DNA from: Parcubacteria group bacterium GW2011_GWA2_38_13
GTDB taxonomy: Bacteria; Patescibacteriota; Patescibacteriia; Buchananbacterales; GWA2-38-13
NCBI GenBank assembly: GCA_000992395.1
Contig: LBUD01000001.1
Span: 1-41,723 of the forward strand
Direction of reading: 5' to 3'
Length of the DNA stretch: 41,723 nucleotides
In this document: positions 2,948 through 35,687 of the stretch, one piece after another
Position numbering within the stretch: the first letter of the stretch is position 1
Layout: every line of letters starts with the position of its first letter
The notes under the pieces: generated by a model
Seen by the model: the letters and a program-made list of their open reading frames with translations, nothing else
The model's database searches: none
What the model was told of the DNA's origin: nothing
Position numbers and translations under genes: made by a program

Positions 2948-4897
2948 ATGAAAAAGGAAAAGGTCGTAGGACTTGTACAAATTAATAACAGCTTTTCTGG
3001 GCAAAGCTACTTTCCATATTCAGTAGGCATTCTTCAGGCATACGCGCAAAAATATCTTCAACGTCCCGAAGAATATAAATTTCTTCCGCAAATATTCAAT
3101 AGAATGCCTGTTCGAAATGCCGTAAAGCTTCTTTCAGAAGCTGATGTTATATTTTTTTCTTTTTATGTATGGAACCAAAAAATAACTTTGGAAATTGCGA
3201 AACAAATTAAATCAAGCAAGCCCGAAGTATTGATAATTTTTGGCGGTCCGCAAGTGCCCAGCTATAGCGAGGATTTTATGAAAAATCACAGCTTTGTTGA
3301 TATTGTATGCCATGGCGAGGGCGAAATTGTATGTACCGCAATTCTTGAAAAAATAGAAACAAAAAATTGGGAGACATGCCCTTCAATAAGTTATAAAAAA
3401 TCCAACACAATAATTACCAATAAACGAGTGGAACGTTTGCGTAACCTATCTGCAATTCCCTCTCCATACCTTTCCGGAGTATTTGATGTGATCATGAAGG
3501 AAAACCCAAACGAGCATTGGATAGGGCTGTGGGAGACTAATCGCGGCTGTCCATTCACGTGCGCATATTGCGATTGGGGCTCGTCCACGCATAATCAAAT
3601 GTTTGCCTACGACATTGAAAGACTGCGCAAAGAAATTGAATGGTTCGCGGATCATAAAATAGAATTTATTTTTTGCGCCGATTCCAATTTTGGCATTATG
3701 CCTCGCGATATTGACCTTGTTTCGTATGTAGCAAAAATAAAAGAAACCAAAGGATACCCCCACGCCCTCTCTGTGCAAACAACAAAAAATGCAACGGAAC
3801 AGTCTTATGCGGTAAGTAAAATATTATCAGATGCCGGCCTCAACAAGGGCATTTCCCTTTCGCTGCAATCTGTTGACCCGACAACTTTAAAAATTATTAA
3901 CCGAAGCAACATATCAACCGAAACTTTCCAGGAGCTGCAGCATCGTTTCACAAGAGATAAAGTTGAAACTTTTACCGATCTTATTTTAGGACTCCCCGGA
4001 GAAACCTACGATTCGTTTACTTTAGGGGTTTCAAAAATTATCGCGGATGGCCAGCACAATAGAATACAATTTAATAATCTCTCCATCCTGCCAAACGCGC
4101 AAATGGGAGACCAAAAATACCAAAAAAAATACGGGATACAAACAGTTACCAATACTATTGTTAATATCCATGGATCAATTACTAAAAATGAAGATGATAT
4201 TATTGAAACGCAAGAATTAGTGATAGCTACAGACTCTACACCCAAAGAAGACTGGGTAAAAACAAGGGCATTCGCATGGATGACCGCACTATTGCATTTT
4301 GATAAAATATTCCAAATTCCGCTTATTTTTCTTCACGAAATACATCGGCTAGACTACCGCGATTCCATAAAACTTTTTTTAGAAACCAATGGAAATGAAT
4401 ATCCGATCATATCAAAAATATCAGATTTCTTTATACAAAAAGCGCGCGACATACAGATTGGTAAAGAAGAGTTCTGTCGGTCATTGGAATGGCTGAATAT
4501 TTGGTGGCCTGCCGATGAGTTGGTACTGATTCAAATTTGCACTCAAAATGAAATAAGCGCATTGTATGAAGAAGCCGAAATGCTTGTATTAACATATCTT
4601 AAAAAAAACAAAATTTCTTTTGATACCATTGCACTCCATGAAGCTATTGAATTAAATAAAAATCTTGTAAAACTTCCTTTCCAAATCAAAGATCAGAAAA
4701 TAATTCTTTCACACAATATATGGGAGTTTTACAAATCGGTTCTGAGCGGTACACCCATATTGTTGGAAAAAATTGAAACAAAATATTTAATTGATAAATC
4801 ATTTAAAACATGGAATTCATGGGAAACCTGGGCCAGAGAAGTGGTTTGGTGGTGCAATAAAAAAGGCGCTTATATGTATACTATAAAAAATATATGA
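2948..4897 (+). CDS. Cobalamin-binding (class B) radical SAM enzyme, long form (649 aa)
   Basis: N-terminal B12-binding-like Rossmann segment (VIFFSFYVWN...VLIIFGGPQVP...CHGEGE). Radical SAM cluster motif ETNRGCPFTCAYCDWG (CxxxCxxC). About 250-aa helical C-terminal extension. Confidence 0.85.
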   Translation: MKKEKVVGLVQINNSFSGQSYFPYSVGILQAYAQKYLQRPEEYKFLPQIFNRMPVRNAVKLLSEADVIFFSFYVWNQKITLEIAKQIKSSKPEVLIIFGGPQVPSYSEDFMKNHSFVDIVCHGEGEIVCTAILEKIETKNWETCPSISYKKSNTIITNKRVERLRNLSAIPSPYLSGVFDVIMKENPNEHWIGLWETNRGCPFTCAYCDWGSSTHNQMFAYDIERLRKEIEWFADHKIEFIFCADSNFGIMPRDIDLVSYVAKIKETKGYPHALSVQTTKNATEQSYAVSKILSDAGLNKGISLSLQSVDPTTLKIINRSNISTETFQELQHRFTRDKVETFTDLILGLPGETYDSFTLGVSKIIADGQHNRIQFNNLSILPNAQMGDQKYQKKYGIQTVTNTIVNIHGSITKNEDDIIETQELVIATDSTPKEDWVKTRAFAWMTALLHFDKIFQIPLIFLHEIHRLDYRDSIKLFLETNGNEYPIISKISDFFIQKARDIQIGKEEFCRSLEWLNIWWPADELVLIQICTQNEISALYEEAEMLVLTYLKKNKISFDTIALHEAIELNKNLVKLPFQIKDQKIILSHNIWEFYKSVLSGTPILLEKIETKYLIDKSFKTWNSWETWAREVVWWCNKKGAYMYTIKNI

Positions 4898-5454
4898 ATG
4901 TATCTGAAATAATCCGAGAATCAATCAATACAAAAATTTTGTTGCTTGACGAAAAACAAATATTTGCCATACAAAAAATGGGTGAAATTATTGTTCATGC
5001 CCTGCATGAAGGAAAAACTATTTTTATGGCAGGAAACGGAGGATCAGCAGCTGACGCGCAACACTTTGCGGCCGAGCTTTCTGGAAAATTTGAGACGGAA
5101 AGGCCTGGCTTGCGGGCTCTGGCCTTAACTGCCAACACTTCAAATATCACCGCGATCGGAAACGATTTTGGATTTAATAAAATTTTTTCACGCCAGATAG
5201 AGGGACTCGGATCGCAAGGCGATGTACTGATAGGCATTTCCACGAGCGGAAATTCACAAAATATTATTGAGGCTATGAGTTCGGCAAAAAATAAAAATAT
5301 GATAAACCTGGGTCTTTTGGGAAACGATGGAGGTACGATAAAAAATCTCTGCGATTTCTCCTGTGTTGTCCCGTCAAAAAATACCGCGAGGATCCAAGAG
5401 TGCCATATACTTATTATCCACATCCTCAGTGCAATAGCTGATAATGCATTTTAA
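4894..5454 (+). CDS. gmhA: D-sedoheptulose-7-phosphate isomerase (SIS domain)
   Basis: MAGNGGSAADAQHFAAELSGKF and GISTSGNSQNIIEA are the classic GmhA SIS motifs. 186 aa. ATGA overlap with the upstream rSAM gene. Confidence 0.85.
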   Translation: MNVSEIIRESINTKILLLDEKQIFAIQKMGEIIVHALHEGKTIFMAGNGGSAADAQHFAAELSGKFETERPGLRALALTANTSNITAIGNDFGFNKIFSRQIEGLGSQGDVLIGISTSGNSQNIIEAMSSAKNKNMINLGLLGNDGGTIKNLCDFSCVVPSKNTARIQECHILIIHILSAIADNAF

Positions 5455-5457
5455 TAT

Positions 5458-6003
5458 ATGACCAAGAAACAATACGTAATTTTAGACAGAGACGGAACGA
5501 TTATCAAAGATGTCGTTCATATTACCAAGATATCTGATATTGAATTTCTCCCACATGCAATAGAAGGCCTTACCATGATGCAAGAGATGGGATTTGAGCT
5601 TATTATTATCACCAATCAGGCCGTAATCGCCCGTAAAATGTGCACATACGACGATGTTGTCGCATTTAACGAAGAACTTTTGAAACATCTGGAAAGCCAT
5701 GGCGTAAAAATCTCTGCAACCTACTTTTGCCCGCATCATCCAGAATTTACCGGAGAATGTATTTGCAGAAAACCAAAGATTGGCATGGTTAAGGTGGCAG
5801 CAAAAGATTTTGGCTTTTTACCATCACAGACAATTTTTATCGGAGATAAAGACTCGGACACGCAATTTGGAAAAAATTACGGCGGAAAAACAATCTTGGT
5901 TGATAACGGCCAATACACAACAGCTATCCCGGCTGATTTCAAGGTAAAAAATTTAGAACAAGTGGCAGAGATTTTAAAAAACAGCTCAACAAAAGTAATG
6001 TAA
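5458..6003 (+). CDS. gmhB: D-glycero-D-manno-heptose 1,7-bisphosphate phosphatase-like HAD-IIIA hydrolase
   Basis: Motif I ILDRDGTI. Zn-loop YFCPHHPEFTGECICRKPKIGM. Motif FIGDKDSD. 181 aa. Confidence 0.8.
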   Translation: MTKKQYVILDRDGTIIKDVVHITKISDIEFLPHAIEGLTMMQEMGFELIIITNQAVIARKMCTYDDVVAFNEELLKHLESHGVKISATYFCPHHPEFTGECICRKPKIGMVKVAAKDFGFLPSQTIFIGDKDSDTQFGKNYGGKTILVDNGQYTTAIPADFKVKNLEQVAEILKNSSTKVM

Positions 6004-6050
6004 AATCTTAACTGCTATCATAAAGAAATTTTTAGAAAGTATATTATCAT

Positions 6051-7388
6051 ATGCCTACACAAAATTTTGTAAAACTACATAAAAAAATGAAAATAGGTTT
6101 TGTATGTCCCTGCGATATGCATAATTTTAAACCCTTCAGAAATCCGCCCTTAAATGCTTTGTATTTTTTAACAATACTGGAAAAAACATTTGGCGAATCA
6201 GCTGATGTATCGCTTATTGATCTAAGGGGGGTGAATAAAGAGCATGCGATTTATTATGTTCCCGAAAAAGATATTTATTTCCACTCAGTGGCCACCATTG
6301 ATTATCCCGAAATCGTGAGAATCGTCCAGGAAATGAGAAATATTTACCCAAAGGCAGTTCATATTGCCGGCGGAGTGCATATTAATATTTTTCCAAAAGA
6401 GAGTTTAAAAATTTTTGACTCCATAGTTTTAGGTGAAGGCGAAAATCTCATTATTGAAATCGTCAAAGATGTTTCAGAATCCCGATTGAAAAAAATTTAT
6501 CAAGAAGATAAGATTTTGGATATTAATGCATATCCATATCCAAGCAGAAAATATACGCCGAAATCAGCAGTAGCCGAAATAGGAATATTGGGCGGAGTTT
6601 ATTACAACATGCCCGGAACCGCAGTTCTTCTCTCGCGCGGATGTCCCTTCAAATGCCATTTTTGCGCAAACCCCGTACAATCTGCCGGCAGATACCGCTT
6701 GCCGGAATTAATTATTGAAGAGATTGAGTATCTTAAAAATGAATATGGGATACAATGCGCATCAATAAAAGACGACAACATTATTTCTGCAAATGTTGAA
6801 ATTTCCAAAAAAACGCTTCTGGCCTTAAAAAAAACAGGCATTAAATGGCGAGGCAATTGCCGCGCTAATGGGATTTCTCGGGATATTATAAAACTTGCCA
6901 AAGAAGCCGGATGCGTTGATCTTGCCATCGGTATTGAAAGCGTCTCCCAGCAAGTTTTACATAACATAAATAAAAGGCTTGATTTGGAAAAAGCCAAAGA
7001 GTTTATGTCCATTCTTAATGAAGAAAAAATCGGGATACGTTTAAATCTCATTATAGGACTGCCCGGTGAACCGAAGGATATTGTCCAACAAAGCATCGAA
7101 TTTGTAAAAAATGTAAAACCCTCATCGGTTCTTTTGTGCGTGCTTACGCCAATTCCCGGTTCTGAAATGTACAAAAATCCTCAAAAATTTGGGATGAAGA
7201 TGGATCCAAATATTACCTTTGATAAACTATTTAATGTTTTCAGCAGATTTGATGAATCTGAAAAACCCTATATGGTTTTTGAATATGATAAGGTAACGCC
7301 ATTTGGAGAAGGCAAAAGCAGCGCAGAGATTATAGATAATTATCAAGAAATACAAACCTTTTTAAGAGAAAATAAACTAACATTTTAA
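6051..7388 (+). CDS. Cobalamin-binding (class B) radical SAM enzyme
   Basis: B12-domain-like HIAGGVHINIFP...LGEGE, then SRGCPFKCHFC (CxxxCxxC). 445 aa. An alternative start at 6087 (MKIGFVCP) is possible. Confidence 0.85.
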   Translation: MPTQNFVKLHKKMKIGFVCPCDMHNFKPFRNPPLNALYFLTILEKTFGESADVSLIDLRGVNKEHAIYYVPEKDIYFHSVATIDYPEIVRIVQEMRNIYPKAVHIAGGVHINIFPKESLKIFDSIVLGEGENLIIEIVKDVSESRLKKIYQEDKILDINAYPYPSRKYTPKSAVAEIGILGGVYYNMPGTAVLLSRGCPFKCHFCANPVQSAGRYRLPELIIEEIEYLKNEYGIQCASIKDDNIISANVEISKKTLLALKKTGIKWRGNCRANGISRDIIKLAKEAGCVDLAIGIESVSQQVLHNINKRLDLEKAKEFMSILNEEKIGIRLNLIIGLPGEPKDIVQQSIEFVKNVKPSSVLLCVLTPIPGSEMYKNPQKFGMKMDPNITFDKLFNVFSRFDESEKPYMVFEYDKVTPFGEGKSSAEIIDNYQEIQTFLRENKLTF

Positions 7389-7391
7389 AAT

Positions 7392-8447
7392 ATGAACACA
7401 AATGTAGGAATTGTTATTACAACAATGGATAGGGCGGAATTCATCAAACGGCAGCTTGAATATTATGCCAGCGCCAATAGCCCGCATACTGTTTATATAG
7501 GCGACTCCAGCAACCCCGAACAAGTCGCTAAAATTGAAGAATCAATAGCAAGGTTTAAAAATAAAATTAAAATCGTTTACAAATTTTTTCCAAAAACAGT
7601 TGGCGTTCAATTGTGCGCCCAACAAATGATTGACGCAATAACTGAAAAATATTTTGCTATAATAGGCGATGATGATTTTCAAATCCCGTCTTCCCTCACA
7701 AAATGCGCTGAGTTTTTGGAAAATAATCCCGACTACGCAACGGCGCATGGCCATGCTGTCGCGATTAGGGTCAAAAACAATTCTGTATACGGAGAGTTGT
7801 CCAAAATCAAAGATTATCCGGAACCCGAAATAAAAAATGAAAGCGCGCAGGATAGAATAGTAAATTATTTAGAACATTATTACCCGACAATTTTTTCAGT
7901 CACCCGGCTTGAAGTTATCAAAGAAGGCTATAAATATTCTGACTCCATTACGGACAAATCTTTTTCATCGGAAATGTTGCCCTGCGCACTCGGGATTGTG
8001 GCGGGAAAATCAAAACTCATTGATTGTCTGAGTTTTGTAAGGCAAATACATGACGGCAGATATCTCCTGCCCGACATGTATGACTGGATAACGCAAAATG
8101 ATTGGAGCAAGGAATATCAAATTTTTCAGGAAATAATGATAAGAGCCATTGCCAAAAAAGACGCCATACCGGAGAAGCAGGCGCAAAGAGCCCTGAAAAA
8201 AGGTTTCTGGACTTATTTGAATATACAAATGTCCAGAGAAATTTATGAAGTATTCCCAGTAGACAAAAAAATAAGCATGAAAAATCTTATAAGACAAAAA
8301 TTTCCTTTTTTAATACCTCTTTACAAAATCGTTAAACCGATGTTTTCAAAAAAACGTTGGCTGCATGCCGAGGTGATAAATCCGCAATCGCCATATTATC
8401 AGGATTTCAAAGCAGTGAAAGATAGTATTGAACAAATTCCAAAATAA
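7392..8447 (+). CDS. GT-A (family 2-like) glycosyltransferase-domain protein
   Basis: N-terminal VGIVITTMDRAEF...YIGDSS and a DxD-like AIIGDDDFQIP, as in GT2-type folds. The C-terminal half is unassigned. Confidence 0.5.
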   Translation: MNTNVGIVITTMDRAEFIKRQLEYYASANSPHTVYIGDSSNPEQVAKIEESIARFKNKIKIVYKFFPKTVGVQLCAQQMIDAITEKYFAIIGDDDFQIPSSLTKCAEFLENNPDYATAHGHAVAIRVKNNSVYGELSKIKDYPEPEIKNESAQDRIVNYLEHYYPTIFSVTRLEVIKEGYKYSDSITDKSFSSEMLPCALGIVAGKSKLIDCLSFVRQIHDGRYLLPDMYDWITQNDWSKEYQIFQEIMIRAIAKKDAIPEKQAQRALKKGFWTYLNIQMSREIYEVFPVDKKISMKNLIRQKFPFLIPLYKIVKPMFSKKRWLHAEVINPQSPYYQDFKAVKDSIEQIPK

Positions 8448-8451
8448 ACCT

Positions 8452-9216
8452 ATGAAAAATATTCGCATAATCCCGCGCCTTGATATCAAGGGTCCGAATC
8501 TGATCAAAGGCATCCATACTGAGGGGCTGCGAGTTTTAGGCAACCCAAAAGAATTTGCAAAAAGATATTATGAAGAAGGCGCTGATGAAATCATTTATTT
8601 GGACACGGTTGCCAGCCTGTACCAGCGGAATTTGGATTTTGATCTATTAAAAACAGTGGCGGAACAAATTTCCATTCCATTAACGGTAGGCGGCGGTATC
8701 CGATCAATTCACGATATTAATAACGCTCTGCGAGCCGGAGCCGATAAAGTGGCGATCAATACCTATGCCGTTTCTCATCCTGAATTTCTGGCCGAGGGCG
8801 CGAAAAAATTCGGTTCGCAGTGTATCGTGCTTTATATAGAAGCAAAAAAAATCATGCCTGGCAAATGGGAAGTTTATACGGACGGCGGGCGCGAAAGGAC
8901 GGGCCTAGACGTAATAGAATGGGCGAAAAAAACTATTGATCTTGGCGTTGGCGAAATTTTAATCACTTCGGTTGATTTTGACGGTACGCGCAAAGGTTTT
9001 GACACAGACCTTGTATCCGCAATAACCGGTTTCGCTCCCATTCCGGTGATTGCCCACGGAGGCGCAGGAGATTTTATATCGGTGAAAAATATTATTACAC
9101 AAGGCCATGCCGATGCCGTGGCGATTTCATCGGTACTCCATTACAAAGATTATTCTTTAAAAGATTTAAAAAAATATTTAAACACGGAAAATATTAATGT
9201 AAGGGCTGTATGTTAA
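8452..9216 (+). CDS. hisF: HisF-like cyclase subunit (AglZ/HisF2-type, acetamidino-sugar modification)
   Basis: ATG at 8452 (MKNIRIIPRLDIKG). Motifs GADKVAINT and GEILITSVDFDGTRKGFD of imidazole-glycerol-phosphate synthase HisF. The context is glycan, not histidine, genes. Confidence 0.85.
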   Translation: MKNIRIIPRLDIKGPNLIKGIHTEGLRVLGNPKEFAKRYYEEGADEIIYLDTVASLYQRNLDFDLLKTVAEQISIPLTVGGGIRSIHDINNALRAGADKVAINTYAVSHPEFLAEGAKKFGSQCIVLYIEAKKIMPGKWEVYTDGGRERTGLDVIEWAKKTIDLGVGEILITSVDFDGTRKGFDTDLVSAITGFAPIPVIAHGGAGDFISVKNIITQGHADAVAISSVLHYKDYSLKDLKKYLNTENINVRAVC

Positions 9217-9851
9217 AGCAAAAACATGTTACAATTATCGATTATGGCGTAGGCAATCTCCACAGTATTGTCAAGGCGGTCGGGAATTTTACCGAAAAAG
9301 TTTTTGTCAGTGAAGATCCGCAGGCTATTGAATCGGCTGATGCGATTATTTTGCCCGGAGTAGGATCATTCCAGTCGGGCATGGAAGGGTTGAATGTCCG
9401 GAATCTGGTTCCAAGCGTAAAAAAATATGTTGCCAGCGGAAAGCCAATGCTGGGAATTTGTCTCGGAGCGCAAATCATGCTTGGCAAAGGATTTGAATTC
9501 GGCGAATTTGACGGGCTCAATATTATACACGGCAAGGTAATTAAATTTCCCGTTCTTGAAAATAATGAAAAAATCCCGCATGTCGGCTGGAATTCTATTT
9601 ATCCTAACGCAGATAAAATATGGAACGATTCCATATTAAAAAACCTTGATCCCCTGTCAAGCGTCTATTTTGTCCATTCGTATATTCTGGTTCCGGAAAA
9701 TAACAAAAACATTTTTGCCAAAACAAAATATGGCGGTTATGAATTTTGTTCCGTAATCAGATCCGGCAACATATACGGATGCCAATTCCATCCTGAGAAA
9801 AGCGGAAAAATCGGCCTTGAAATTATTAAAAATTTTCTTGAACTTATTTAA
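9210..9851 (+). CDS. hisH: HisH-like glutamine amidotransferase subunit
   Basis: Class I GATase triad motifs GICLGAQIM, HVGWNS, QFHPEKSG. Overlaps the hisF-like gene by 7 nt. Confidence 0.85.
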   Translation: MLKQKHVTIIDYGVGNLHSIVKAVGNFTEKVFVSEDPQAIESADAIILPGVGSFQSGMEGLNVRNLVPSVKKYVASGKPMLGICLGAQIMLGKGFEFGEFDGLNIIHGKVIKFPVLENNEKIPHVGWNSIYPNADKIWNDSILKNLDPLSSVYFVHSYILVPENNKNIFAKTKYGGYEFCSVIRSGNIYGCQFHPEKSGKIGLEIIKNFLELI

Positions 9852-9855
9852 CCAT

Positions 9856-11067
9856 ATGGATCAAAAATACGGAAAATACGGGCTCCCAACGGAAGTGCAA
9901 TTTTGCAAAAAATGCGTGATTTCCAATCAACGCCCCAATTCTGCCGTGGAAATAAAAAATACCAAGGATACCAAAAAAGAAACAATCAACTTTGACTCCG
10001 AGGGTATCTGCGATGCTTGCCGTTTTGCCGAATATAAAAATAATACGATAGATTGGGAGAAACGGGAAAAAGAGCTTATGGCGCTTTGTGATAAATTTCG
10101 CAGCAAGGATGGTTCTTATGACTGTATTATCCCGGGATCCGGCGGCAAGGATAGCGGTTATGTATCCCATGTCTTAAAATATAAATATGGCATGAACCCC
10201 TTGACGATCACATGGGCTCCGCACCTTTATACAGATATTGGATGGAAAAATATGACAAATTGGATTCATAAAGGAGGATTTGACAATATTTTATTTACTC
10301 CCAATGGCAGAGTCCATCAACTTCTCACGAAAATCGCTTTTGAAAATCTCCTGCATCCTTTCCAGCCTTTTATGATAGGTCAAAGAGGAATAGGCCCTAA
10401 ATTTGCCGCACTGTATAAAATACCACTGGTATTCTATGGGGAAAACCAAGCAGAATACGGCAATAAAATTGAAGAAAATGATAGTCCAACAATGCAACAT
10501 AAATTTTTTGCCGAAGATTCTGGCTTAGATAATTTATATTTAAGTGGCGTCTTCGCGAAGGAAATTATATCTACATACAGCATAACGACTAAAGATCTTA
10601 ATCCTTATTTGCCTATAACCCGATCGGCCATAGAACGCAACGGAATAGAAGTGCATTATATTAGCTATTATTTAAAATGGGATCCACAAGAAAATTTCTA
10701 CTACTCGTCAAAAAATAACAGTTTTCAGGCCAATGACGAAAGAACCGAGGGTAGCTATTCAAAGTATGCCAGTATTGATGATAAAATCGATAACTTCCAT
10801 CATTATACGTATCTCATTAAATTCGGCATGGGACGAGCTACATTTGATGCCTCTCAAGAGATCAGAAACCACAAAATAACTCGCGAAGAAGGGGTGGCGC
10901 TTGTGAAAAGATTTGACCAAGAATTTCCGAAAAAATATTTTAAAGAGTATCTTGAATATATAGATATATCCGAGGAAAAATTTTGGCAACTTATAGATGC
11001 CGCGCGCCCCGGCCATCTATGGAGAAAAAATAATGGGTCGTGGGAATTAATTCATCAAGTAAATTAA
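9856..11067 (+). CDS. N-acetyl sugar amidotransferase (PP-loop ATPase; PseA/WbpG-like)
   Basis: ATG at 9856. N-terminal Zn-ribbon (FCKKCV...CDACRF). PP-loop IIPGSGGKDSGYV. Sits directly after the HisF/HisH pair, as in known acetamidino-sugar loci. Confidence 0.85.
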   Translation: MDQKYGKYGLPTEVQFCKKCVISNQRPNSAVEIKNTKDTKKETINFDSEGICDACRFAEYKNNTIDWEKREKELMALCDKFRSKDGSYDCIIPGSGGKDSGYVSHVLKYKYGMNPLTITWAPHLYTDIGWKNMTNWIHKGGFDNILFTPNGRVHQLLTKIAFENLLHPFQPFMIGQRGIGPKFAALYKIPLVFYGENQAEYGNKIEENDSPTMQHKFFAEDSGLDNLYLSGVFAKEIISTYSITTKDLNPYLPITRSAIERNGIEVHYISYYLKWDPQENFYYSSKNNSFQANDERTEGSYSKYASIDDKIDNFHHYTYLIKFGMGRATFDASQEIRNHKITREEGVALVKRFDQEFPKKYFKEYLEYIDISEEKFWQLIDAARPGHLWRKNNGSWELIHQVN

Positions 11068-11069
11068 AT

Positions 11070-12113
11070 ATGGCAAAACCACATATACAAATTAAAGATA
11101 GAAAAATAGGTTTGGATTATCCGCCACTTGTAATTGCTGAAGTGGGAATAAACCATGAAGGTGATATTCACAAGGCTAAAAAAATGATAATGGATGCGCA
11201 TGCGAGTGGCGCAGAGTGCGTTAAATTCCAAATACACGTTATTGAAGACGAAATGATACCTCTTGCGAAAAAAGTCGTCCCGGGGCACACAAAGGAATCC
11301 ATATGGGAGATAATGGAACGGTGCGCGCTTACAGAGCCAGAAGACAGAGAATTAAAATCGCTTGTGGAAAGCCTTGGTATGATATATCTTTCAACACCGT
11401 TTTCTAGAGCCGCGGCAGACAGGCTTCGCTCAATGGATGTTTTGGCATATAAAATCGGCTCGGGTGAATGTAATAATTATCCGCTCATAGAACATATAGC
11501 ATCATTTAAAAAGCCCGTGATAATGAGCACGGGGATGAATGATGTGCAATCCATAAAAATTGGAGTTGATATTTTAGAAAAAAATAATATACCTTATGCA
11601 ATCCTTCATTGCACCTCATTGTACCCCACCACGTACGACAAGGTTCGGCTTGGAGCACTTCTGGAAATGAAAGAAGCATTTCCGTCTGCAGTTTTAGGGC
11701 TTAGTGACCATTCGCTTGGCAATTATACATGCTTTGGCGCAGTAAGCCTAGGAGCGTCTATTCTTGAAAAACATTTCACGTCCGATAAGTCATGGCCGGG
11801 TCCGGATGTTTCCATTTCCATTGATCCGAAAGAGCTTAGTGAATTGATCGTTGGTTCAAAAGCAATATATTCAGCTCTTGGCGGCAGTAAAAATATTTTA
11901 CCCGAGGAAAAGCCAACGATTGATTTTGCCTATGCCTGTGTTGTTACGATAAAAAATATACGCAAAGGAGAAAAATTCACACGCGACAATATCTGGGTGA
12001 AAAGGCCAGGAACGGGCGAAATCAAAGCGGTGGAATTCAATTCTGTTCTAGGAAAAAAGGCTTTAAACGATATTTCTGAAAATTCTCAACTAACATATAA
12101 AGATATGATATAA
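11070..12113 (+). CDS. neuB: NeuB-family nonulosonic acid synthase, copy 1 (with C-terminal SAF domain)
   Basis: VIAEVGINHEGD, STPFS, HCTSLYPT, LGLSDHSLG, EKHFT; C-terminal IKKGEKFT...VKRPGTG. ATG at 11070 (MAKPHIQIKDRKIG). Confidence 0.85.
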   Translation: MAKPHIQIKDRKIGLDYPPLVIAEVGINHEGDIHKAKKMIMDAHASGAECVKFQIHVIEDEMIPLAKKVVPGHTKESIWEIMERCALTEPEDRELKSLVESLGMIYLSTPFSRAAADRLRSMDVLAYKIGSGECNNYPLIEHIASFKKPVIMSTGMNDVQSIKIGVDILEKNNIPYAILHCTSLYPTTYDKVRLGALLEMKEAFPSAVLGLSDHSLGNYTCFGAVSLGASILEKHFTSDKSWPGPDVSISIDPKELSELIVGSKAIYSALGGSKNILPEEKPTIDFAYACVVTIKNIRKGEKFTRDNIWVKRPGTGEIKAVEFNSVLGKKALNDISENSQLTYKDMI

Positions 12114-12117
12114 AAAT

Positions 12118-13272
12118 ATGGCAAAAAAAAGAAAAATTTTATTTATTACCGAGCGCCGGGCGGATTATAGCCGCATTAAACCCATAATGAAAGCTGTCCA
12201 AGAAAGTAAAAAATTACAGCTCCAATTAGTAGCAACGGGTATGCATTTACTAAAATATTTCGGCGAAACGAAAAAAGTAATACGTAAAGACGGTTTTACG
12301 GTAGATGCCACCATACCTATTTTTAATGAAAAGGATGGCAATGATGGTGCGTCTATGGTCAAGGCTATGGGCAGAGCGCTTGTGGGAATGGCCGATGTAT
12401 TAAAAAAACTCAAGCCAGATATAATTTTTGCCGGCTTTGATCTTGGAGCAAATTTTGCTGCCGCAATCGCCGGGATGCATATGAATATCCATGTCTCTCA
12501 CATACAGGGGGGCGAGGTCAGTGGTACTGTTGACGAAGTTATCCGGCACGCCATTACAAAATTTTCACATATACATTTTGCGGCTACGGAAAAAAGCAAA
12601 AAAAGAATTATTCGGCTCGGTGAAGATCCAAAATACGTCTTCAACGTCGGCAGTCCGAGCCTAGACACGATTCTAAAAACTCCGCAAGTATCAAAAAAAA
12701 TTATTTTTAAGAAATATTCTCTTGATCCCAAGAAAAAAACTATAATTCTAATACAGCATCCTGTTACAACCGAAGTTAATGACGTTGAAAAACAAATTTC
12801 TATTACCATTAAAGCTATAAAAAAAGTTATAAAAAAACACAATATGCAAGCGCTTGCGATATATTCAAATAATGATGCCGGAGGAAAAAAAATAGTTAAA
12901 AGATTATGCTCTTCTGGAATAAGAGTACTGCCACATATTATTTTTGAAGATTTTCTAAAAATTTTAAAAAATTCAGACGTATTGGTCGGAAACTCCAGTT
13001 CAGGCATTCATGAAGCTCCCTCATTCGGACTGCCGACAGTAAACATCGGCACAAGGCAGCAGCTTCGCGAGCGCGGAGTAAACGTAATTGATACTGATCA
13101 TGATGTTCAAAATATCATCAAATGCATAGAAAAATCCTTGTTTGATAAAAAATTCATTACAAAAGTTAAAATGGGGAAAAACCCATATTATAACGGGAAC
13201 ACGTCGAAAAAAGTTGTTAAAATCTTGGAAAATCTTAAATTCCCGTCTATACAAAAAGTTATCACCTATTAA
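12118..13272 (+). CDS. neuC: UDP-N-acetylhexosamine 2-epimerase (hydrolysing), copy 1
   Basis: HIQGGEVSGTVDEVIRHAITKFSHIHFA and GNSSSGIHEAPSFGLPTVNIG, characteristic of NeuC/LegG/PseG-like hydrolysing epimerases. Confidence 0.85.
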   Translation: MAKKRKILFITERRADYSRIKPIMKAVQESKKLQLQLVATGMHLLKYFGETKKVIRKDGFTVDATIPIFNEKDGNDGASMVKAMGRALVGMADVLKKLKPDIIFAGFDLGANFAAAIAGMHMNIHVSHIQGGEVSGTVDEVIRHAITKFSHIHFAATEKSKKRIIRLGEDPKYVFNVGSPSLDTILKTPQVSKKIIFKKYSLDPKKKTIILIQHPVTTEVNDVEKQISITIKAIKKVIKKHNMQALAIYSNNDAGGKKIVKRLCSSGIRVLPHIIFEDFLKILKNSDVLVGNSSSGIHEAPSFGLPTVNIGTRQQLRERGVNVIDTDHDVQNIIKCIEKSLFDKKFITKVKMGKNPYYNGNTSKKVVKILENLKFPSIQKVITY

Positions 13273-13274
13273 AT

Positions 13275-14135
13275 ATGAAAACCATACTTATTATCGGGGG
13301 CACTGGTTATATTGGAGAGTATGTTACCAATTTCTTGAAAAAACATAAAGGGTTAGATCTTATCGTTATTCATAAATCCGAGCCGGTACACAATAAAGTG
13401 CGGGGTGTCCATTATTATAAGCTCAACCTTTCAGAAAAGAAGCTGAAGCTTCCTCCTAAGCTTGCTCAATTTGATGCCATAATCATATTAACCAAATCGG
13501 ATAAAAGCATTATGAATAACATTTGCCGGGTCATCCTGCCACAAGCAAAAAAAATAATTTTTGCCTCATCAATACTTGTTTATCCTTCACGTAGAGGAAA
13601 AATAACCGAAAAAGTCTCACCAAAACCAGTGACTGTATACGAAAAAAACAAAATCTTCGAGGAAAATATTCTTGCGCGATACGCCAAAAAAAACAGAATA
13701 CCCCTCATTGTTGCCCGGCTTGCCAATGTGTATGGCGATATAAAAAATAAGGGCGTTGTTTCAAAAATATTTGAAACGATGCAAAAAAATCAAGAATTTA
13801 AAATGAATAGATTCGGCAACAAAAAAAAGGATTACATTTTTATTGAAGATGCGGCAGAATTTTTATGTCGCTTGGTTTTAATAATACCGCGATCAAAAAA
13901 AGAAATATACAACGTTTGTACGGGAAAAGGTTACTCTATGCTGGAACTTATATCTTTGATTGAAAAAATAATAGAAAAAAAATTGGCGTATACTTTCTAC
14001 GACGGCAAGAAGAACAAGCAATTTATCGTCGGAGAAAATAAAAAAATCGTAGAAACGACGGGTTATCATCCCCATGATATCATGTCGGGTCTTAAAAAGA
14101 CATATAATAACTTCGCATCTAAAAATTTTTCTTAA
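13275..14135 (+). CDS. NAD(P)-dependent epimerase/dehydratase-family SDR (candidate 4-ketoreductase)
   Basis: ILIIGGTGYIGEYV glycine-rich loop; YxxxK (VYEKNK). 286 aa. Confidence 0.75.
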   Translation: MKTILIIGGTGYIGEYVTNFLKKHKGLDLIVIHKSEPVHNKVRGVHYYKLNLSEKKLKLPPKLAQFDAIIILTKSDKSIMNNICRVILPQAKKIIFASSILVYPSRRGKITEKVSPKPVTVYEKNKIFEENILARYAKKNRIPLIVARLANVYGDIKNKGVVSKIFETMQKNQEFKMNRFGNKKKDYIFIEDAAEFLCRLVLIIPRSKKEIYNVCTGKGYSMLELISLIEKIIEKKLAYTFYDGKKNKQFIVGENKKIVETTGYHPHDIMSGLKKTYNNFASKNFS

Positions 14136-14148
14136 TTCATTACTTTCT

Positions 14149-15159
14149 ATGGACAATATTTTCAAAGATAAAACAATACTCGTCACCGGAGGCACGGGGA
14201 GCATTGGCTCCGAACTCGTTGCCCAGCTTCTTGCCTATGAACCAAAACAAATACGAATATTTTCTCGTGATGAAAGCAAGCAATATTATCTTTTAGAAAA
14301 GTTGAACCATCCGAAAAATATCCGTCTCTTGATTGGTGACGTTCGGGATAAAGAAAGACTCTCTATAGCCTTTAAAAATGTCAACTATGTTTTTCACGCA
14401 GCCGCCATGAAACACGTCCCGCTCTGCGAGTATAATCCCGTAGAAGCTGTAAAAACAAATATTCTTGGTTCACAGAATGTTATTGATGTAGCTATTGAAA
14501 ACAATGTAGAAAAGGTTATAGCTATATCTACGGATAAGGCTGTAAAACCCTCAAATGTGCTAGGCACAACAAAATTGATGATGGAAAAACTTTTCGTAAA
14601 CGAAAGTTATTATACATCGAATAACCGTACAAAACTATCCTGTGTAAGATTTGGAAACGTTCTTTGGTCAAGAGGATCGGTTTTGCACCTTTGGAAAAAT
14701 CAAGCCGAAAAAGATAGTTCAATAAAACTAACAAATGGGGAAATGACCAGATTTTTTATGTCTCAGGCGCAAGCGGTCGGGCTTATTCTAAAAGCCACCC
14801 AGTATACGCAAGGCGGGGAAATATTTATTCTAAAAATGCCTGCTATTCAATTATCGTATCTGGCAGAAATTTTTATTAAAAAATATTTTCCAGATAAAAA
14901 AATGGAGATAAAAATAATCGGATGCAGAGAAGGAGAGAAAGAACACGAAGAACTGGTGGACTGCAATGATACAAATAAATATATTTATGAGAACGAAGAA
15001 TTATACATCATAGTTCCATCCAATATTGAAGTGTACAACGCTCCATTTGGCGCAGAAGAAAATTTCTATTTTAAGCATGGTTTTAAAAAGATTGATATAA
15101 TTGAAAAATTCTGTTCTCTGGATAATATCAATCACGAACTGATACGAGAAATTATATAA
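14149..15159 (+). CDS. UDP-N-acetylglucosamine 4,6-dehydratase (CapD/PseB/FlaA1-like)
   Basis: ATG at 14149 (MDNIFKDKTILVTGGTGSIGSEL). FHAAAMKHVPLCEYNPVEAVKTNILGSQNVI matches the PseB/FlaA1 signature region. Confidence 0.8.
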   Translation: MDNIFKDKTILVTGGTGSIGSELVAQLLAYEPKQIRIFSRDESKQYYLLEKLNHPKNIRLLIGDVRDKERLSIAFKNVNYVFHAAAMKHVPLCEYNPVEAVKTNILGSQNVIDVAIENNVEKVIAISTDKAVKPSNVLGTTKLMMEKLFVNESYYTSNNRTKLSCVRFGNVLWSRGSVLHLWKNQAEKDSSIKLTNGEMTRFFMSQAQAVGLILKATQYTQGGEIFILKMPAIQLSYLAEIFIKKYFPDKKMEIKIIGCREGEKEHEELVDCNDTNKYIYENEELYIIVPSNIEVYNAPFGAEENFYFKHGFKKIDIIEKFCSLDNINHELIREII

Positions 15160-15169
15160 TAAATATTTT

Positions 15170-16621
15170 ATGGTTTTGAATGAAACGACAAGCAATAAAA
15201 AAGTTAAAGGGCGCGTGCTCTTCATTTATCCCAACTGTGAGGGGTATGGAGGGCTGCCCAATAGCCTCGCCATACTTTCAGGATGTTTGAAAGGCGCTGG
15301 CTTCGAAACTCGCTGTTTTGACACAACGTTTTTGAAATCCCCCCCTCTTTCGCATTTTTACAGGAAAAAGCATGGGGGATTTATGGACGCCGACCATACC
15401 AAAGTCTGGGGCGAATGGACTCCGGAACTCGCCAAGCAAATCCCGTCCATGTTTGAAAAGACCATAGAAGAATTCAAGCCCAATCTCATTGCCATAAATA
15501 TCGCCGATGTAACCTACCATTATGCCCTGGCGCTTCTTAAGGATATCAATAAAAAATACGGCGTACCCGTAATTGCCGGGGGGCCCACACCGACGCTTTC
15601 TCCAGATTTATTTGAAAGCGCCGATTGCATTGACATGCTGTGCATCGGCGAAGGCGAAGAAGCACTTGTTGAATTAGCCGAGGCGATTGTTGAAAAACGC
15701 GACTACGGCAACATTAAAAATCTCTGGGTGAAAAAAGATAGAAATTTTATTAAAAATACACCTCGCCCCCTCAAAAACTTAGACACTATCCCCTTCCAAG
15801 ACTGGTCAATTTTCGACGAGAGGCATTACTATAAGCCGTATTGCGGTAAATTCTGGAGGACGGGATTTTTTGAGACATCGCGAGGATGCCCCTTCAATTG
15901 CACCTACTGCTGCACGGCGAATCTGCGACAAACGTATCACGGGCTTGGCCAATTTTTACGCTTCCGCAACATTGATAAAGCCCTTGATGAGATCTGCGCC
16001 ATTAAAGACCAGTACAAACTTGAATTAATTTTTTTCATTGACGACAATTTCTTGGGCATACCGCCAGAACGCTTCGATTACTTTTGCGAGCAATATAAAA
16101 AACGGGTGAATCTTCCTTATTACATACAAACCCGCGCTGAAACTGTAAGAGAAGACTTTGTCAAGATGCTTCTGAAAACCAATGTTTCCACTATTGCCCT
16201 GGGCATTGAAAACGGCAATGAAGAATATCGCCGTAAATACATGAACCGTTTCATGTCAAACGAAGCCATTGTCAAAGCTTTCAAAATCATCAATAAATAC
16301 AAAATCCGCACCACGGCCAATGTCATAATAGGCATGCCTTACGAGGAAGAAAAACATTTTTATGACACGGTCCGGCTCATACAAAAGGCAAAACCATCGA
16401 GCTATTCCATCAACTATTTCCAGCCATACCGAGGAACAAAGATGCGAGAAGAAGCGGTGCGCCTCGGCTTTATTCCCAAAGAACATATTATCAGTGAATC
16501 TAACACTTGCCTAGACATGCCCCAATTTCCAAAAGATAGAATAATGCATTGCTACGAAAATTTTAAAAAATATGTAGAGAATAAAATTCCTATACCAATA
16601 CAATATGAGAAATATTCTTAA
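15170..16621 (+). CDS. Cobalamin-binding (class B) radical SAM enzyme
   Basis: VIAGGPTPTLSP...CIGEGE B12-domain-like segment; SRGCPFNCTYC cluster motif. 483 aa. Confidence 0.85.
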   Translation: MVLNETTSNKKVKGRVLFIYPNCEGYGGLPNSLAILSGCLKGAGFETRCFDTTFLKSPPLSHFYRKKHGGFMDADHTKVWGEWTPELAKQIPSMFEKTIEEFKPNLIAINIADVTYHYALALLKDINKKYGVPVIAGGPTPTLSPDLFESADCIDMLCIGEGEEALVELAEAIVEKRDYGNIKNLWVKKDRNFIKNTPRPLKNLDTIPFQDWSIFDERHYYKPYCGKFWRTGFFETSRGCPFNCTYCCTANLRQTYHGLGQFLRFRNIDKALDEICAIKDQYKLELIFFIDDNFLGIPPERFDYFCEQYKKRVNLPYYIQTRAETVREDFVKMLLKTNVSTIALGIENGNEEYRRKYMNRFMSNEAIVKAFKIINKYKIRTTANVIIGMPYEEEKHFYDTVRLIQKAKPSSYSINYFQPYRGTKMREEAVRLGFIPKEHIISESNTCLDMPQFPKDRIMHCYENFKKYVENKIPIPIQYEKYS

Positions 16622-17585
16622 AGAATACAAAATTTTCGACATTGACCCCAAAAGGCTACGGAGCAAAAAATTTTATAAAAACATGCTCGAGCTTCATGAA
16701 AAATTAATGGTAAAATTCAAGAGTGCGATAAAACCCAATGAACAATTCGTATGTCTTCTCTGCCAATCAGATCAAAAAAAATTATTTTTAGAGTATCGCG
16801 GTTACTCTCTATTTGAATGCAGCCGATGCGGGCTTGTTTCTCCGAATATTGATTTCCAAAAAGTCAAAGACCAGGATATTTATGAGGATGAGGCGTACTA
16901 TTTAGACACCAGGAGAGAAATACTTGATACTTATGAATACCGAAAGAATACATACGCGCCAGAGCGGCTCAAATATATCCTGGAAAAAACAAAGCTTGAT
17001 GTGAATCAAATTAATCTGCTTGATGTCGGTTGCGGTCCCGGATATTTTATTGAACATCTCAAAAGCATGGGCATCAAATACAAAGGACTCGAGCTTACCG
17101 ATTATTTGGTTACAATCTGCAATGAAAGAAGCCTCAGTGTTGCTAAAACCGAGCTGAAAGATGAGCCTGATGGCGCGTATAACGTTATTACGATGTATGA
17201 TGTCCTGGAGCATGTTTCAAACCCGCTAACCCTATTCCGCGACCTTCATAAAAAACTGGCAGACACGGGTTTCGTAGTAGCATACTCGCCCCACATACAC
17301 TCAATTGCTTTTTATCTATTGAAAGAAAAACAGAATACTCTTTACCCATTTCAACATATTGCCTTTTACGACGCTAAGTCGTTGCAATATGTAGCTGAAA
17401 AAACCGGCTTTAAGGTACATTCAATTAATTTTTTCGGTCTTGATGTCATAGATTATTTTTGCTACAGAATGTACGCAGATAATTGCGATTACCTGGAAAA
17501 ATTCAAAGAATTCATGCCCGTGATGCAGGCGATAATTGATAAGATGAATTTGAGCAATCATATAAGAGTAATTTTTAAAAAATAA
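16605..17585 (+). CDS. Class I SAM-dependent methyltransferase with N-terminal Zn-ribbon
   Basis: CLLCQS...CSRCGL zinc-ribbon-like pairs. SAM motif I LLDVGCGPGYF. ITMYDVLEHVSNP. Confidence 0.8.
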   Translation: MRNILKEYKIFDIDPKRLRSKKFYKNMLELHEKLMVKFKSAIKPNEQFVCLLCQSDQKKLFLEYRGYSLFECSRCGLVSPNIDFQKVKDQDIYEDEAYYLDTRREILDTYEYRKNTYAPERLKYILEKTKLDVNQINLLDVGCGPGYFIEHLKSMGIKYKGLELTDYLVTICNERSLSVAKTELKDEPDGAYNVITMYDVLEHVSNPLTLFRDLHKKLADTGFVVAYSPHIHSIAFYLLKEKQNTLYPFQHIAFYDAKSLQYVAEKTGFKVHSINFFGLDVIDYFCYRMYADNCDYLEKFKEFMPVMQAIIDKMNLSNHIRVIFKK

Positions 17586-17588: not shown

Positions 17589-18299
17589 ATGTTTAACGAT
17601 AAAAAAATTCTAGCAATTATTCCAGCCAGAGGTGGCTCAAAGCGACTGCCAAGAAAAAATATCAGGCCTTTGGCCGGAAAGCCGTTATTGGCATATTCAA
17701 TTGAAGCCGCAAGGTCATCGCAATATATTGATCGTATCATAGTGTCAACAGAAGACATGGAAATTGCAAATATTGCAAAAAAATTTGGGGCTGACGTACC
17801 GGCTTTACGGCCCATGGAACTTGCCGAGGACGCCACAAAATCAGATGATGTCTTGAAATATACTGCTGAATATATGGAGTCAAAAGAAAATTATATACCT
17901 GATATCATCGTTTTAATCCAGCCCACAAGTCCACTTGTATCCGCTGAAGATATTGACAAAACTGTTGAAACGCTTATCGCAGGAAATTCTCATTCATCAT
18001 TGACTGTGTGTGAAATTACTGAAAGACCGGAATGGATGTATCGGCTTAATGGCAATGTTGCTTCTCCCTACATCCAGGGCGAAGTTCCCTATAGGCACCA
18101 AGACATGCAAAAACTGTATCGAACCAATGGCGCTGTTTATTGCGTCAAGCGTGAAATATTATTAAAAAAAGGAATACTCGTAGACAAAGAAAGTTTGCGG
18201 GTATATATAATGCCCAAAGAGAGATCTGTGGACATCGACGACATTAATGATTTCAACTATGCAGAAACGCTTATCGAAAACAATAAAAATACACAATAA
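17589..18299 (+). CDS. neuA: CMP-nonulosonic acid synthetase (acylneuraminate cytidylyltransferase family)
   Basis: N-terminal AIIPARGGSKRLPRKNI signature; QPTSPL; 236 aa. Confidence 0.85.
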   Translation: MFNDKKILAIIPARGGSKRLPRKNIRPLAGKPLLAYSIEAARSSQYIDRIIVSTEDMEIANIAKKFGADVPALRPMELAEDATKSDDVLKYTAEYMESKENYIPDIIVLIQPTSPLVSAEDIDKTVETLIAGNSHSSLTVCEITERPEWMYRLNGNVASPYIQGEVPYRHQDMQKLYRTNGAVYCVKREILLKKGILVDKESLRVYIMPKERSVDIDDINDFNYAETLIENNKNTQ

Positions 18300-30805: not shown

Positions 30806-30837
30806 AAAAGCTCCACCAAAATCGTGGAGCTTTTTTT
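30806..30837. terminator. Bidirectional intrinsic (Rho-independent) terminator between the convergent blocks
   Basis: AAAAGCTCCAC-CAAAATC-GTGGAGCTTTTTTT. The 8-bp stem is 30809-30816 / 30824-30831, flanked by an A-tract upstream and a T7 tract downstream. It lies between the stops at 30782 (+) and 30836 (-). Confidence 0.7.
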
Positions 30838-35685: not shown

Positions 35686-35687
35686 AA

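Follow-up and report, generated by a model that had tools for sequence, protein, structure and literature searches.

Three distinct radical SAM enzymes of class-B architecture as probable nucleotide-sugar tailoring enzymes in a surface-glycan island of a Parcubacteria bacterium

The 41,723-nucleotide (nt) stretch at positions 1 to 41,723 of contig LBUD01000001.1 of Parcubacteria group bacterium GW2011_GWA2_38_13 (assembly GCA_000992395.1), which was analysed over its full 41.7 kb and is here called the window, is one dense array of glycan genes that runs on the + strand to ~30.8 kb and on the − strand beyond. An earlier note on this DNA had pointed to three + strand open reading frames (ORFs) at 2948-4897, 6051-7388 and 15170-16621, and had read them as cobalamin-type (class-B) radical S-adenosylmethionine (SAM) enzymes embedded in a pathway to modified heptose and nonulosonic acid (NulO) precursors. 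Their coordinates, the quoted peptides and the CxxxCxxC motifs were all confirmed, and we name the products rSAM1 (649 amino acids, aa), rSAM2 (445 aa) and rSAM3 (483 aa). Characteristic peptides are LIIFGGPQVP at aa 95 and GCPFTCAYC at aa 200 in rSAM1, HIAGGVHINIFP at aa 104 and GCPFKCHFC at aa 197 in rSAM2, and VIAGGPTPTLSP at aa 134 and GCPFNCTYC at aa 239 in rSAM3. The CX3CX2C motif itself starts at aa 201, 198 and 240, respectively, and was seen in no other of the 42 window proteins checked. The described gene order was also found, with rSAM1, a SIS-domain gene, a HAD-IIIA gene and rSAM2 in one group and rSAM3, a methyltransferase, neuA-like, neuB and neuC genes in another. Since the three proteins are only 20-27% identical to each other, they represent three distinct subfamilies and no recent duplicates. 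Our reading, which we consider probable, is that these three unrelated enzymes of class-B architecture serve as nucleotide-sugar tailoring enzymes in a surface-glycan island.

The domain architecture was analyzed with Pfam, where all three proteins matched Radical_SAM (PF04055; 59.5, 73.2 and 76.1 bits for rSAM1, rSAM2 and rSAM3, cut-off 29.5 bits). The cobalamin-binding domain (B12-binding, PF02310; cut-off 32.1 bits) scored above threshold in rSAM1 (36.7 bits) and rSAM3 (44.2 bits) and below it in rSAM2 (26.9 bits), so that the proposed class-B architecture holds for the whole set and the cobalamin-binding domain score for two of its members. Class-B architecture alone is insufficient for cobalamin binding, because AprD4 and ArsL are members of the B12 radical SAM similarity network and yet do not bind cobalamin (PMC12931638), and in the cobalamin-domain review we found no feature that discriminates AprD4-type non-binders. 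Comparison with hidden Markov models of class-B subfamilies, as the earlier note had suggested, placed rSAM1 closest to KedN5, but none of the three proteins reached a curated cut-off. Considering the evidence for each protein, the cobalamin-type label is well supported for rSAM1 and moderately supported for rSAM3.

For rSAM1 the best NCBIfam family was KedN5 (NF033712), with 272 bits against a cut-off of 700, and the model aligned only at positions 54-401 of 624, in the N-terminal two-thirds. Among PDB sequences, the closest match was TokK (7kdx; E 2.3e-94, 35% identity over 449 aa), and CysS also matched strongly (E 1.2e-60); the identity of rSAM1 to TokK is higher than that between CysS and TokK, which is only 29% (10.1101/2021.07.10.451909). 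Residues W75 and W210 of rSAM1 align to Trp76 and Trp215 of TokK, of which the former lies beneath the cobalt and the latter is a catalytically important residue in the active site; TokK, ThnK and CysS have both in common, and the remaining cobalamin-dependent radical SAM methylases in that comparison lack them (10.1101/2021.07.10.451909). By sequence, rSAM1 belongs to the TokK/CysS/KedN5 methylase clade, sharing with TokK, ThnK, CysS and KedN5 the cobalamin-binding Rossmann and radical SAM domains together with the clade-specific Trp pair. We predict, as a strong inference, that rSAM1 is a cobalamin-dependent C-methylase; the proposed C-methylation of sugar precursors can be upheld at this strength for rSAM1, but not for rSAM2 and rSAM3. 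With TokK, rSAM1 aligns only up to residue 471 of its 649, and the C-terminal substrate-recognition domain of rSAM1 is unrelated to those of TokK and KedN5. Furthermore, TokK, CysS and KedN5 function in antibiotic biosynthesis, whereas the context of rSAM1 is that of nucleotide sugars and surface glycans, and unlike the members of the TokK clade the rSAM1 group is very widespread in bacteria and archaea and highly conserved.

To describe this context, orthologues of rSAM1 were collected in a scan with one genome per species and the neighbouring ORFs were clustered into families. The scan gave 27 genome loci from more than 10 phyla, with ~42-58% identity to rSAM1 (best tblastn segment). The hosts are Nitrospirota, Omnitrophota, anammox Planctomycetes, cyanobacteria, Acidobacteria, Dehalococcoidia, marine Alphaproteobacteria, members of the Candidate Phyla Radiation (CPR; Woesebacteria, Saccharibacteria, Saganbacteria), Woesearchaeota and Thermoplasmatales. 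An extended short-chain dehydrogenase/reductase (SDR) gene lies directly beside the rSAM1 orthologue at 15 of 26 loci and within three genes at 22 of 26. Genes for an E1beta-like protein, an HddA-like GHMP kinase and a DegT-family protein (clustered family C4) were each present at 15/27 loci, E1alpha and E1beta together at 12, an HddC-like nucleotidyltransferase at 10/27 and a second class-B radical SAM enzyme at 8/27; a single locus (L006) is without any sugar gene. The best NCBIfam matches of the kinase and the transferase in these other loci were HddA (156 bits) and HddC (158 bits), both below cut-off. The contexts annotated directly with Pfam (the Nitronereus locus L028, L037/38, L039-41 and L046) were concordant with the clustering. 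Conserved partners of rSAM1 and rSAM2 are extended SDRs, the E1alpha/E1beta pair dependent on thiamine diphosphate (ThDP), a His-type DegT 3-dehydratase, the HddA-like kinase and the HddC-like transferase. In 12 of 16 DegT proteins near rSAM1 orthologues, that of this scaffold included, His stands at the position of the Schiff-base Lys, a replacement that we take to be the signature of the ColD and E1(RfbH) sugar 3-dehydratases. The gmhA/gmhB genes, found at 2/27 loci only, were rejected as defining partners of rSAM1 and rSAM2. The bracketing of gmhA-gmhB by rSAM1 and rSAM2 is correct as gene order, but the link to heptose that had been drawn from it is weak, and the SIS and HAD-IIIA proteins in addition fall below the GmhA and GmhB equivalog cut-offs.

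The best NCBIfam matches of rSAM2 were HpnJ (119 bits) and BchE (100 bits), neither of which reached its cut-off, and the best PDB sequence match was AprD4 (E 1.5e-15, core only). An AlphaFold model (pLDDT 92.7) showed a Rossmann domain and a radical SAM barrel, and Foldseek returned AprD4 as top match (TMq 0.73, 18% structural identity), followed by TsrM, MgmA, CysS and TokK. Orthologues of rSAM2 (52-65% identity) occur in the E1alpha/E1beta/SDR/kinase/DegT cassette at L037, L039-41, L046, L012 and L015. Four independent contexts show them in the same cassette, once without rSAM1 (L046). In the Rifle scaffolds L039-L041 two class-B radical SAM genes, one of them the rSAM2 orthologue, lie ~8 kb from a gene for an 897-aa STT3/AglB-type oligosaccharyltransferase, which suggests that the product there feeds protein N-glycosylation, and a Laminin_G_3 protein is encoded at a similar distance (~8 kb) from the rSAM2 orthologue.

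From its sequence and modelled fold, rSAM2 is a candidate for either a second methylase or an AprD4-like radical dehydratase or rearrangement enzyme. AprD4, which acts in C3'-deoxygenation of apramycin, is a radical SAM 1,2-diol dehydratase with a sugar substrate and a partner reductase, and shares the two-domain architecture with rSAM2. It is conceivable, if not the reading we favour, that rSAM2 above all, and possibly rSAM3, is a cobalamin-independent or non-methylating radical enzyme working on the same sugars, either as an AprD4-like 1,2-diol dehydratase that deoxygenates together with a partner SDR or in a ring rearrangement of the OxsB/HpnJ type. The lead of AprD4 in both the sequence and the fold lists of rSAM2 fits such an enzyme, but the structural identity is just 18%, and the AprD4 family model (NF033070; 62.6 bits, cut-off 500) covers only residues 190-375, the radical SAM core, whereas the models of the cobalamin-dependent HpnR, BzaD, BchE and Sden_1168 align across the N-terminal Rossmann region. 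Likewise, the B12-binding score under the threshold, the top NCBIfam match to HpnJ, a hopanoid-associated radical SAM protein, and the precedent of AprD4 and ArsL, which do without cobalamin (PMC12931638), have to be set against the invariant residues D57, R59, G107, G108, H110 and D123 in the N-terminal domain of the rSAM2 family, which suggest a functional ligand site there. A possible partner reductase would be at hand in the SDR-rich cassettes.

In rSAM3 the NCBIfam matches were PhpK (119 bits) and BchE (115 bits), below their cut-offs, and the best PDB sequence match was the glutamine C-methylase MgmA (9ccb, E 8e-12). With E 4e-8 to TokK, rSAM3 is outside the TokK clade. The AlphaFold model (pLDDT 95.0) again consists of a Rossmann domain and a radical SAM barrel; its best Foldseek matches by E-value were the cobalamin-dependent methylases TsrM, MgmA and CysS, which argues for a methylase, while the highest TM-score (0.70) belonged to AprD4 and favours the non-methylating alternative. 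TokK and OxsB were also among the best PDB fold matches of the rSAM2 and rSAM3 models, and the structural comparison proposed in the earlier note thus returned AprD4, TsrM, MgmA, CysS, TokK and OxsB as fold matches of these two proteins. We predict that rSAM3 is a cobalamin-dependent modifier of a NulO precursor, most likely a methylase. The surroundings of its orthologues point in the same direction, as NeuA, NeuB and NeuC genes lie beside them at four of five independent informative loci (L030, L031/32, L033 and L042; 59-73% identity), with a DegT gene as well at L030, L031/32 and L042. The proposed co-occurrence of such enzymes with neuB and gmhA was therefore seen for rSAM3 with NeuA/NeuB/NeuC (4/5 loci), but only rarely for rSAM1 with gmhA/gmhB (2/27). 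The metagenome scan for rSAM3 used a single protein as query and gave four loci; an alignment query would be better. Methyltransferase genes of the MT_23 type are found near the rSAM3 orthologues in L030 and L042 also. At the locus L035 an archaeal DNA polymerase D large subunit gene with an intein and a LAGLIDADG domain (L035:13-4782) lies ~5 kb upstream of the rSAM3 homologue, from which it follows that the family occurs in Archaea. Genes for SPASM-domain radical SAM proteins were seen near rSAM3 homologues at L031:11432-12535, L042:13164-14336 and L043:5343-6452, and the one in L043, beside a sulfatase, is probably a maturase. An ORF at L042:9506-11377, listed as PF27859 (LIC12162, a Leptospira gene name), gave nothing in a direct hmmscan and the label was not used.

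A second alternative, which we find unlikely, is that rSAM3, and perhaps the others, methylates a substituent of the NulO, for example the methyl carbon in an N-acetyl or acetamidino group, so that a propionyl- or propionimidoyl-type decoration results and the carbon skeleton is left unchanged. In L033 the rSAM3 orthologue is immediately downstream of a set of acetamidino genes (WbuX/WbuZ/HisH) like that in the window, and the homologue in L035 is flanked by a methyltransferase and an amidotransferase-like gene even though NeuB is missing there, but WbuXYZ is absent from the rSAM3 loci L030, L031/32 and L042. TokK, ThnK and CysS do lengthen small alkyl or alkoxy groups instead of ring carbons, a precedent that is weakened by the position of rSAM3 outside their clade. 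In addition, we know of no NulO that carries propionyl- or propionimidoyl-type substituents, which counts against this alternative.

It is very improbable that the radical SAM genes are mere passengers of the glycan island with a non-sugar substrate (peptide, as in RiPPs, the peptides made on the ribosome and modified after translation; lipid carrier, tetrapyrrole or cofactor), as the matches (each scoring far under the cut-off) of rSAM2 and rSAM3 to HpnJ, BchE, RiPP methylases and a ladderane lipid protein and the orthologues L006 and L047 outside sugar contexts might suggest, because the intergenic gaps are ≤47 nt with operon-like overlaps, profile scans found no RiPP, lipid or tetrapyrrole genes across the 41.7-kb window, and the sugar context is kept for all three groups across phyla and both prokaryotic domains. 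A RiPP role in particular was ruled out by these gaps and overlaps together with the lack of peptide-maturation genes in the scans; the longest gap within 2948-16621 is 47 nt, and in agreement with the earlier note no precursor-peptide ORF fits in any of them. A lipid or tetrapyrrole role was rejected likewise, as the HpnJ, BchE and ladderane matches score 4-6 times below their cut-offs and no such genes were found nearby. The sugar-pathway setting that the earlier note had assigned to the three genes is borne out by the recurrence of all three orthologous groups in nucleotide-sugar or NulO contexts of unrelated genomes.

The genes around rSAM1 and rSAM2 form a cassette that is cut by the left edge of the window. 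The scaffold L044 from the Rifle aquifer metagenome is the window's own scaffold, the same DNA with 7 kb extra upstream (offset 7053), and carries in order genes for an NTP-transferase, an Fcl-like SDR, an adh_short protein, a second Fcl-like SDR, a Gmd-like 4,6-dehydratase, a DegT protein, an SDR and E1alpha; the two Fcl-like proteins, the Gmd-like one and the last SDR make up four extended SDRs. As the cassette starts ~7 kb upstream and E1alpha is split, the edge divides a functional unit. The NTP_transferase gene is at the upstream edge of L044, the DegT gene (L044:3887-5083), just upstream of the window, has His for the Schiff-base Lys of the pyridoxal phosphate cofactor in the motif SFFFGHQLSTIEGG, and no GHMP kinase gene was found in the DNA available for this scaffold (L044 and the window). 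The 3' end of the ThDP-dependent E1alpha-like gene occupies positions 1-20 of the window (+ strand, as are all cassette genes within the window; E1_dh at L044:6354-7073; best NCBIfam match pyruvate dehydrogenase (PDH) E1 alpha, 90.6 bits). It is followed by an E1beta-like gene (70-1020), in which the Pfam domains Transket_pyr and Transketolase_C were found in L044/L045 and which matched the NCBIfam PDH E1 beta subfamily with 71 bits, below cut-off. Judged by its sequence, the E1beta-like protein is a candidate partner of E1alpha and a candidate C-branching ThDP enzyme. The gene at 1017-1778 encodes a cupin-fold protein (weak matches to Cupin_1, Cupin_2 and MannoseP_isomer), possibly a sugar isomerase or epimerase, and a homologue with 35% identity is found near E1beta and DJ-1 in L020. 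Further downstream are a DJ-1/PfpI gene (1799-2308; Pfam 154 bits; NCBIfam PfpI subfamily 154.9 bits, above the cut-off of 139) and a HAD-IA phosphatase-like gene (2272-2940; HAD_2, 95 bits). The DJ-1/PfpI gene is found beside E1alpha/E1beta again in L020 and L039-L041 (56-69% identity). Between rSAM1 and rSAM2 lie the genes for a GmhA-like SIS-domain sugar-phosphate isomerase (4894-5454; TIGR00441 gmhA 198.1 bits against a cut-off of 209.45, PRK13936 205 against 276) and a GmhB-like HAD-IIIA phosphatase (5458-6003; PRK08942 133.2 against a cut-off of 178, while the HAD-IIIA and histidinol-phosphatase domain models were passed), and rSAM2 is followed by a glycosyltransferase of the TIGR04440 family (7392-8447; 162.5 bits, above the cut-off of 70) that is also present near rSAM1 in L018, L022 and L027. 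Taken together, predicted ThDP carboligase-type genes (E1_dh, Transket_pyr) and reductase genes (two Fcl-like SDRs, adh_short) lie beside a Gmd-like SDR, and we read the region as part of an island for surface-glycan biosynthesis that spans 48 kb or more.

The remainder of the + strand is occupied by a NulO block. A set of WbuZ/HisF-like, HisH-like and WbuX genes (8428-11067; WbuX TIGR03573 383 bits against 203, HisH 205.7 against 105, WbuZ 258 and HisF 282 both just under cut-off) is predicted to encode a sugar acetamidino-forming amidotransferase. Next come a NeuB-like NulO synthase and a NeuC-like hydrolysing 2-epimerase (11040-13272; NeuB_NnaB 362 bits, below 399.65; NeuC_NnaA 397.5, above 235.9), then an extended SDR and a PseB/FnlA-like UDP-GlcNAc 4,6-dehydratase (13275-15159; PseB TIGR03589 318 bits, below 407.75; GalE-like 75.6 bits). 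Downstream of rSAM3 are a class I SAM methyltransferase (16605-17585; Methyltransf_23, 77 bits), a NeuA/PseF-like CMP-NulO synthetase with a second NeuB and NeuC (17589-20461; PseF 188 bits, below 205.7; NeuB_NnaB 427.6, above 399.65; Epimerase_2 253.6), and a carbamoyltransferase of the NodU/CmcH type with a GFO/IDH/MocA oxidoreductase (20469-23194; Carbam_trans_N 174, Carbam_trans_C 250 and GFO_IDH_MocA 38 bits), the last two being likely further tailoring enzymes. The carbamoyltransferase gene (20469-22223) directly follows NeuC2, and the enzyme may give an O-carbamoylated sugar. The presence of two NeuB/NeuC pairs (11040-13272 and 18247-20461) with one NeuA-like synthetase and a WbuXYZ set suggests that NulO is made either in two variants or as a single, heavily tailored form. 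A candidate NulO transferase is encoded at 24220-25110, with an MptE-like/DUF115 (Maf-type) match of 33.2 bits, just under the cut-off of 34.6.

Besides the radical SAM enzymes, the 41.7 kb hold seven genes, or fragments of genes, for class I SAM methyltransferases (16605-17585, 25116-25769, 25896-26636, 30063-30782, 37449-38066, 39613-40212 and 41337-41660), and with this number of methylating enzymes the glycan is probably extensively methylated. A 377-aa ORF at 28842-29975 has a weak C-terminal match to the arginine deiminase family (19.8 bits) and may be an amidinotransferase-fold enzyme. The − strand from 30836 to 41660 forms a second, convergent glycan block with GT1, GT2, PMT_2, amine oxidase and SDR genes; two of its ORFs, 35688-37421 (577 aa) and 30836-31693 (285 aa), gave no Pfam match even at E 0.05. 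The GC content of the scaffold is ~37% and falls to 31-36% beyond ~30 kb, where the GC skew becomes increasingly negative (~-0.2 at 34-36 kb and 38-40 kb). Long ORFs (110-190 aa) in antisense direction on the − strand (3446-3778, 4995-5423, 6602-7174 and 12498-13007) sit within the radical SAM, gmhA-like and neuC genes and are most likely spurious products of AT-rich composition. Neither tRNAs nor marker genes were found in the window.

From these elements we infer a mechanism. The cassette from upstream of the window to ~8447 would make a nucleoside diphosphate (NDP)-4-keto-3,6-dideoxy sugar, possibly a GDP-heptose derivative, by means of the HddC-like nucleotidyltransferase, the Gmd-like 4,6-dehydratase and the ColD/RfbH-type His-DegT 3-dehydratase. 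The split ThDP enzyme E1alpha/E1beta would then add a two-carbon branch derived from pyruvate, in the manner of AviB1/AviB2 and YerE, and SDRs would reduce the product. Such a route is known for acyl-branched sugars of lipopolysaccharide, where an NDP-4-keto-3,6-dideoxy sugar is passed to a ThDP carboligase and a reductase (PMC9306805), and for the two-protein systems AviB1/AviB2 and Pau11/Pau12 it has been proposed that they attach acetyl branches at C-4 with pyruvate as the source (PMC4753412). With a 5'-deoxyadenosyl radical and methylcobalamin, rSAM1 would methylate an unactivated sp3 carbon of the branched intermediate, most plausibly in the branch or its terminal methyl and, by analogy with TokK and CysS, possibly in iterative rounds. 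A second radical step on the same sugar, methylation or AprD4-like dehydration, would be carried out by rSAM2. In the NulO block, rSAM3 would modify a 5,7-diamino NulO precursor or its N-acyl or acetamidino group, with NeuB/NeuC/NeuA, WbuXYZ and a methyltransferase as partners. In its most specific form our proposal is an undescribed nucleotide-sugar pathway of many uncultured Bacteria and Archaea, in which a ThDP-branched 4-keto-3,6-dideoxy sugar is extended, possibly iteratively, by TokK-like methylases and, separately, nonulosonic acids are C-methylated, with higher-carbon alkyl-branched sugars and C-methylated nonulosonic acids on cell surfaces as predicted products; this we put forward only tentatively. 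CPR and DPANN hosts must presumably scavenge B12. Two anammox metagenome-assembled genomes (L007 and L025) carry the E1alpha/E1beta/SDR/rSAM1 cassette, and the S-layer O-glycan of Kuenenia includes a 174-Da residue without assigned identity (PMC5088730). By arithmetic, 174 Da is the mass of a yersiniose-type C8H14O4 residue, and it is a speculation of ours that this residue could be a product of an rSAM1-type pathway.

Several observations weigh against a role of all three enzymes in nucleotide-sugar tailoring as set out here. None of rSAM1, rSAM2 and rSAM3 reaches any curated NCBIfam cut-off, and no member of the three orthologous groups has been characterised, products included. In rSAM2 the B12 domain misses the Pfam cut-off, and AprD4, to which its fold is most similar, is a cobalamin non-binder. 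In rSAM1 the C-terminal 180 residues are unlike TokK and the substrate-binding Arg280 of TokK is replaced by S275, so its substrate cannot be inferred from that of TokK and, as far as the sequence tells, is therefore a different one. The starting sugar is uncertain with regard to heptose, as gmhA/gmhB are rare (2/27 loci) and the SIS and HAD-IIIA proteins score under the GmhA/GmhB equivalog cut-offs; that it may be a GDP-heptose is plausible from the gene content, though not established. Individual orthologues or homologues were also found elsewhere, rSAM1 in L006 and rSAM2 in L047 outside the cassette, and rSAM3 in L035 (53%, the archaeal contig) and L043 (40%) without NulO genes. Finally, the comparison loci were drawn from pattern-based scans and a handful of look-ups and are no unbiased census.

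In the literature we found no class-B radical SAM enzyme characterised in a NulO, heptose, O-antigen, branched-sugar or other surface-glycan pathway, in line with what the earlier note had stated for NulO and heptose surface glycans. The list of characterised enzymes in a 2026 review contains none from polysaccharide or glycan pathways (PMC12931638), and a paper on C. jejuni HS:19 names no more than a sulfatase maturase and a radical SAM metalloprotein that is unrelated. Functional precedent comes from the characterised Csp3 methyltransferases GenK, GenD1, Fms7 and MoeK5 (PMC12931638), which methylate unactivated sugar carbons by methylcobalamin and 5'-deoxyadenosyl radical chemistry in aminoglycosides and moenomycin. 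These were compared by function, and they act on pseudo-oligosaccharides of actinomycete secondary metabolism, whereas here the substrates would be NDP-sugars and CMP-NulO. The pathway logic of the cassette is that of yersiniose, erwiniose and caryophyllose (YerE/YerF), eurekanate and paulomycose (AviB1/B2, Pau11/12), with an NDP-sugar, a 4,6-dehydratase, a 3-dehydratase dependent on pyridoxamine phosphate with His for Lys, ThDP branching at the 4-keto group and reduction by an SDR. The known acyl-branched sugar pathways work without a radical SAM enzyme and obtain longer branches from longer alpha-keto-acid donors (PMC9306805), and the cassette differs from them in the split E1alpha/E1beta, one or two class-B radical SAM enzymes and the HddA/HddC-like activation enzymes. 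With the legionaminic, pseudaminic and neuraminic acid pathways the window shares NeuA/PseF-like and PseB-like enzymes, two NeuB/NeuC pairs and WbuXYZ. We found no class-B radical SAM enzyme in descriptions of these NulO pathways, whereas rSAM3 orthologues are a recurrent extra in NulO clusters of uncultured lineages. Thus, the superfamily, the architecture and the chemistry are known, and what is new is a widespread and conserved pathway context.

Most of the very large group of class-B radical SAM enzymes is uncharacterised, and those members that are known to modify sugars all belong to antibiotic pathways. Each of the three proteins described here has unnamed homologues in uncultured lineages, which number in the hundreds to thousands. 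The locus supplies three highly conserved groups of orthologues whose genomic context is defined and lies in the primary biosynthesis of cell-surface glycans; one group (rSAM1) is closely related to the structurally understood TokK and CysS. If our reading is true, radical C-methylation or other radical chemistry would add to the diversity of bacterial and archaeal surface sugars, nonulosonic acids included, and next to the keto-acid-donor scheme there would be another way of making sugar side chains that are long or branched. The synthesis of surface glycans would then also depend on the availability of cobalamin in lineages that are unable to make B12.

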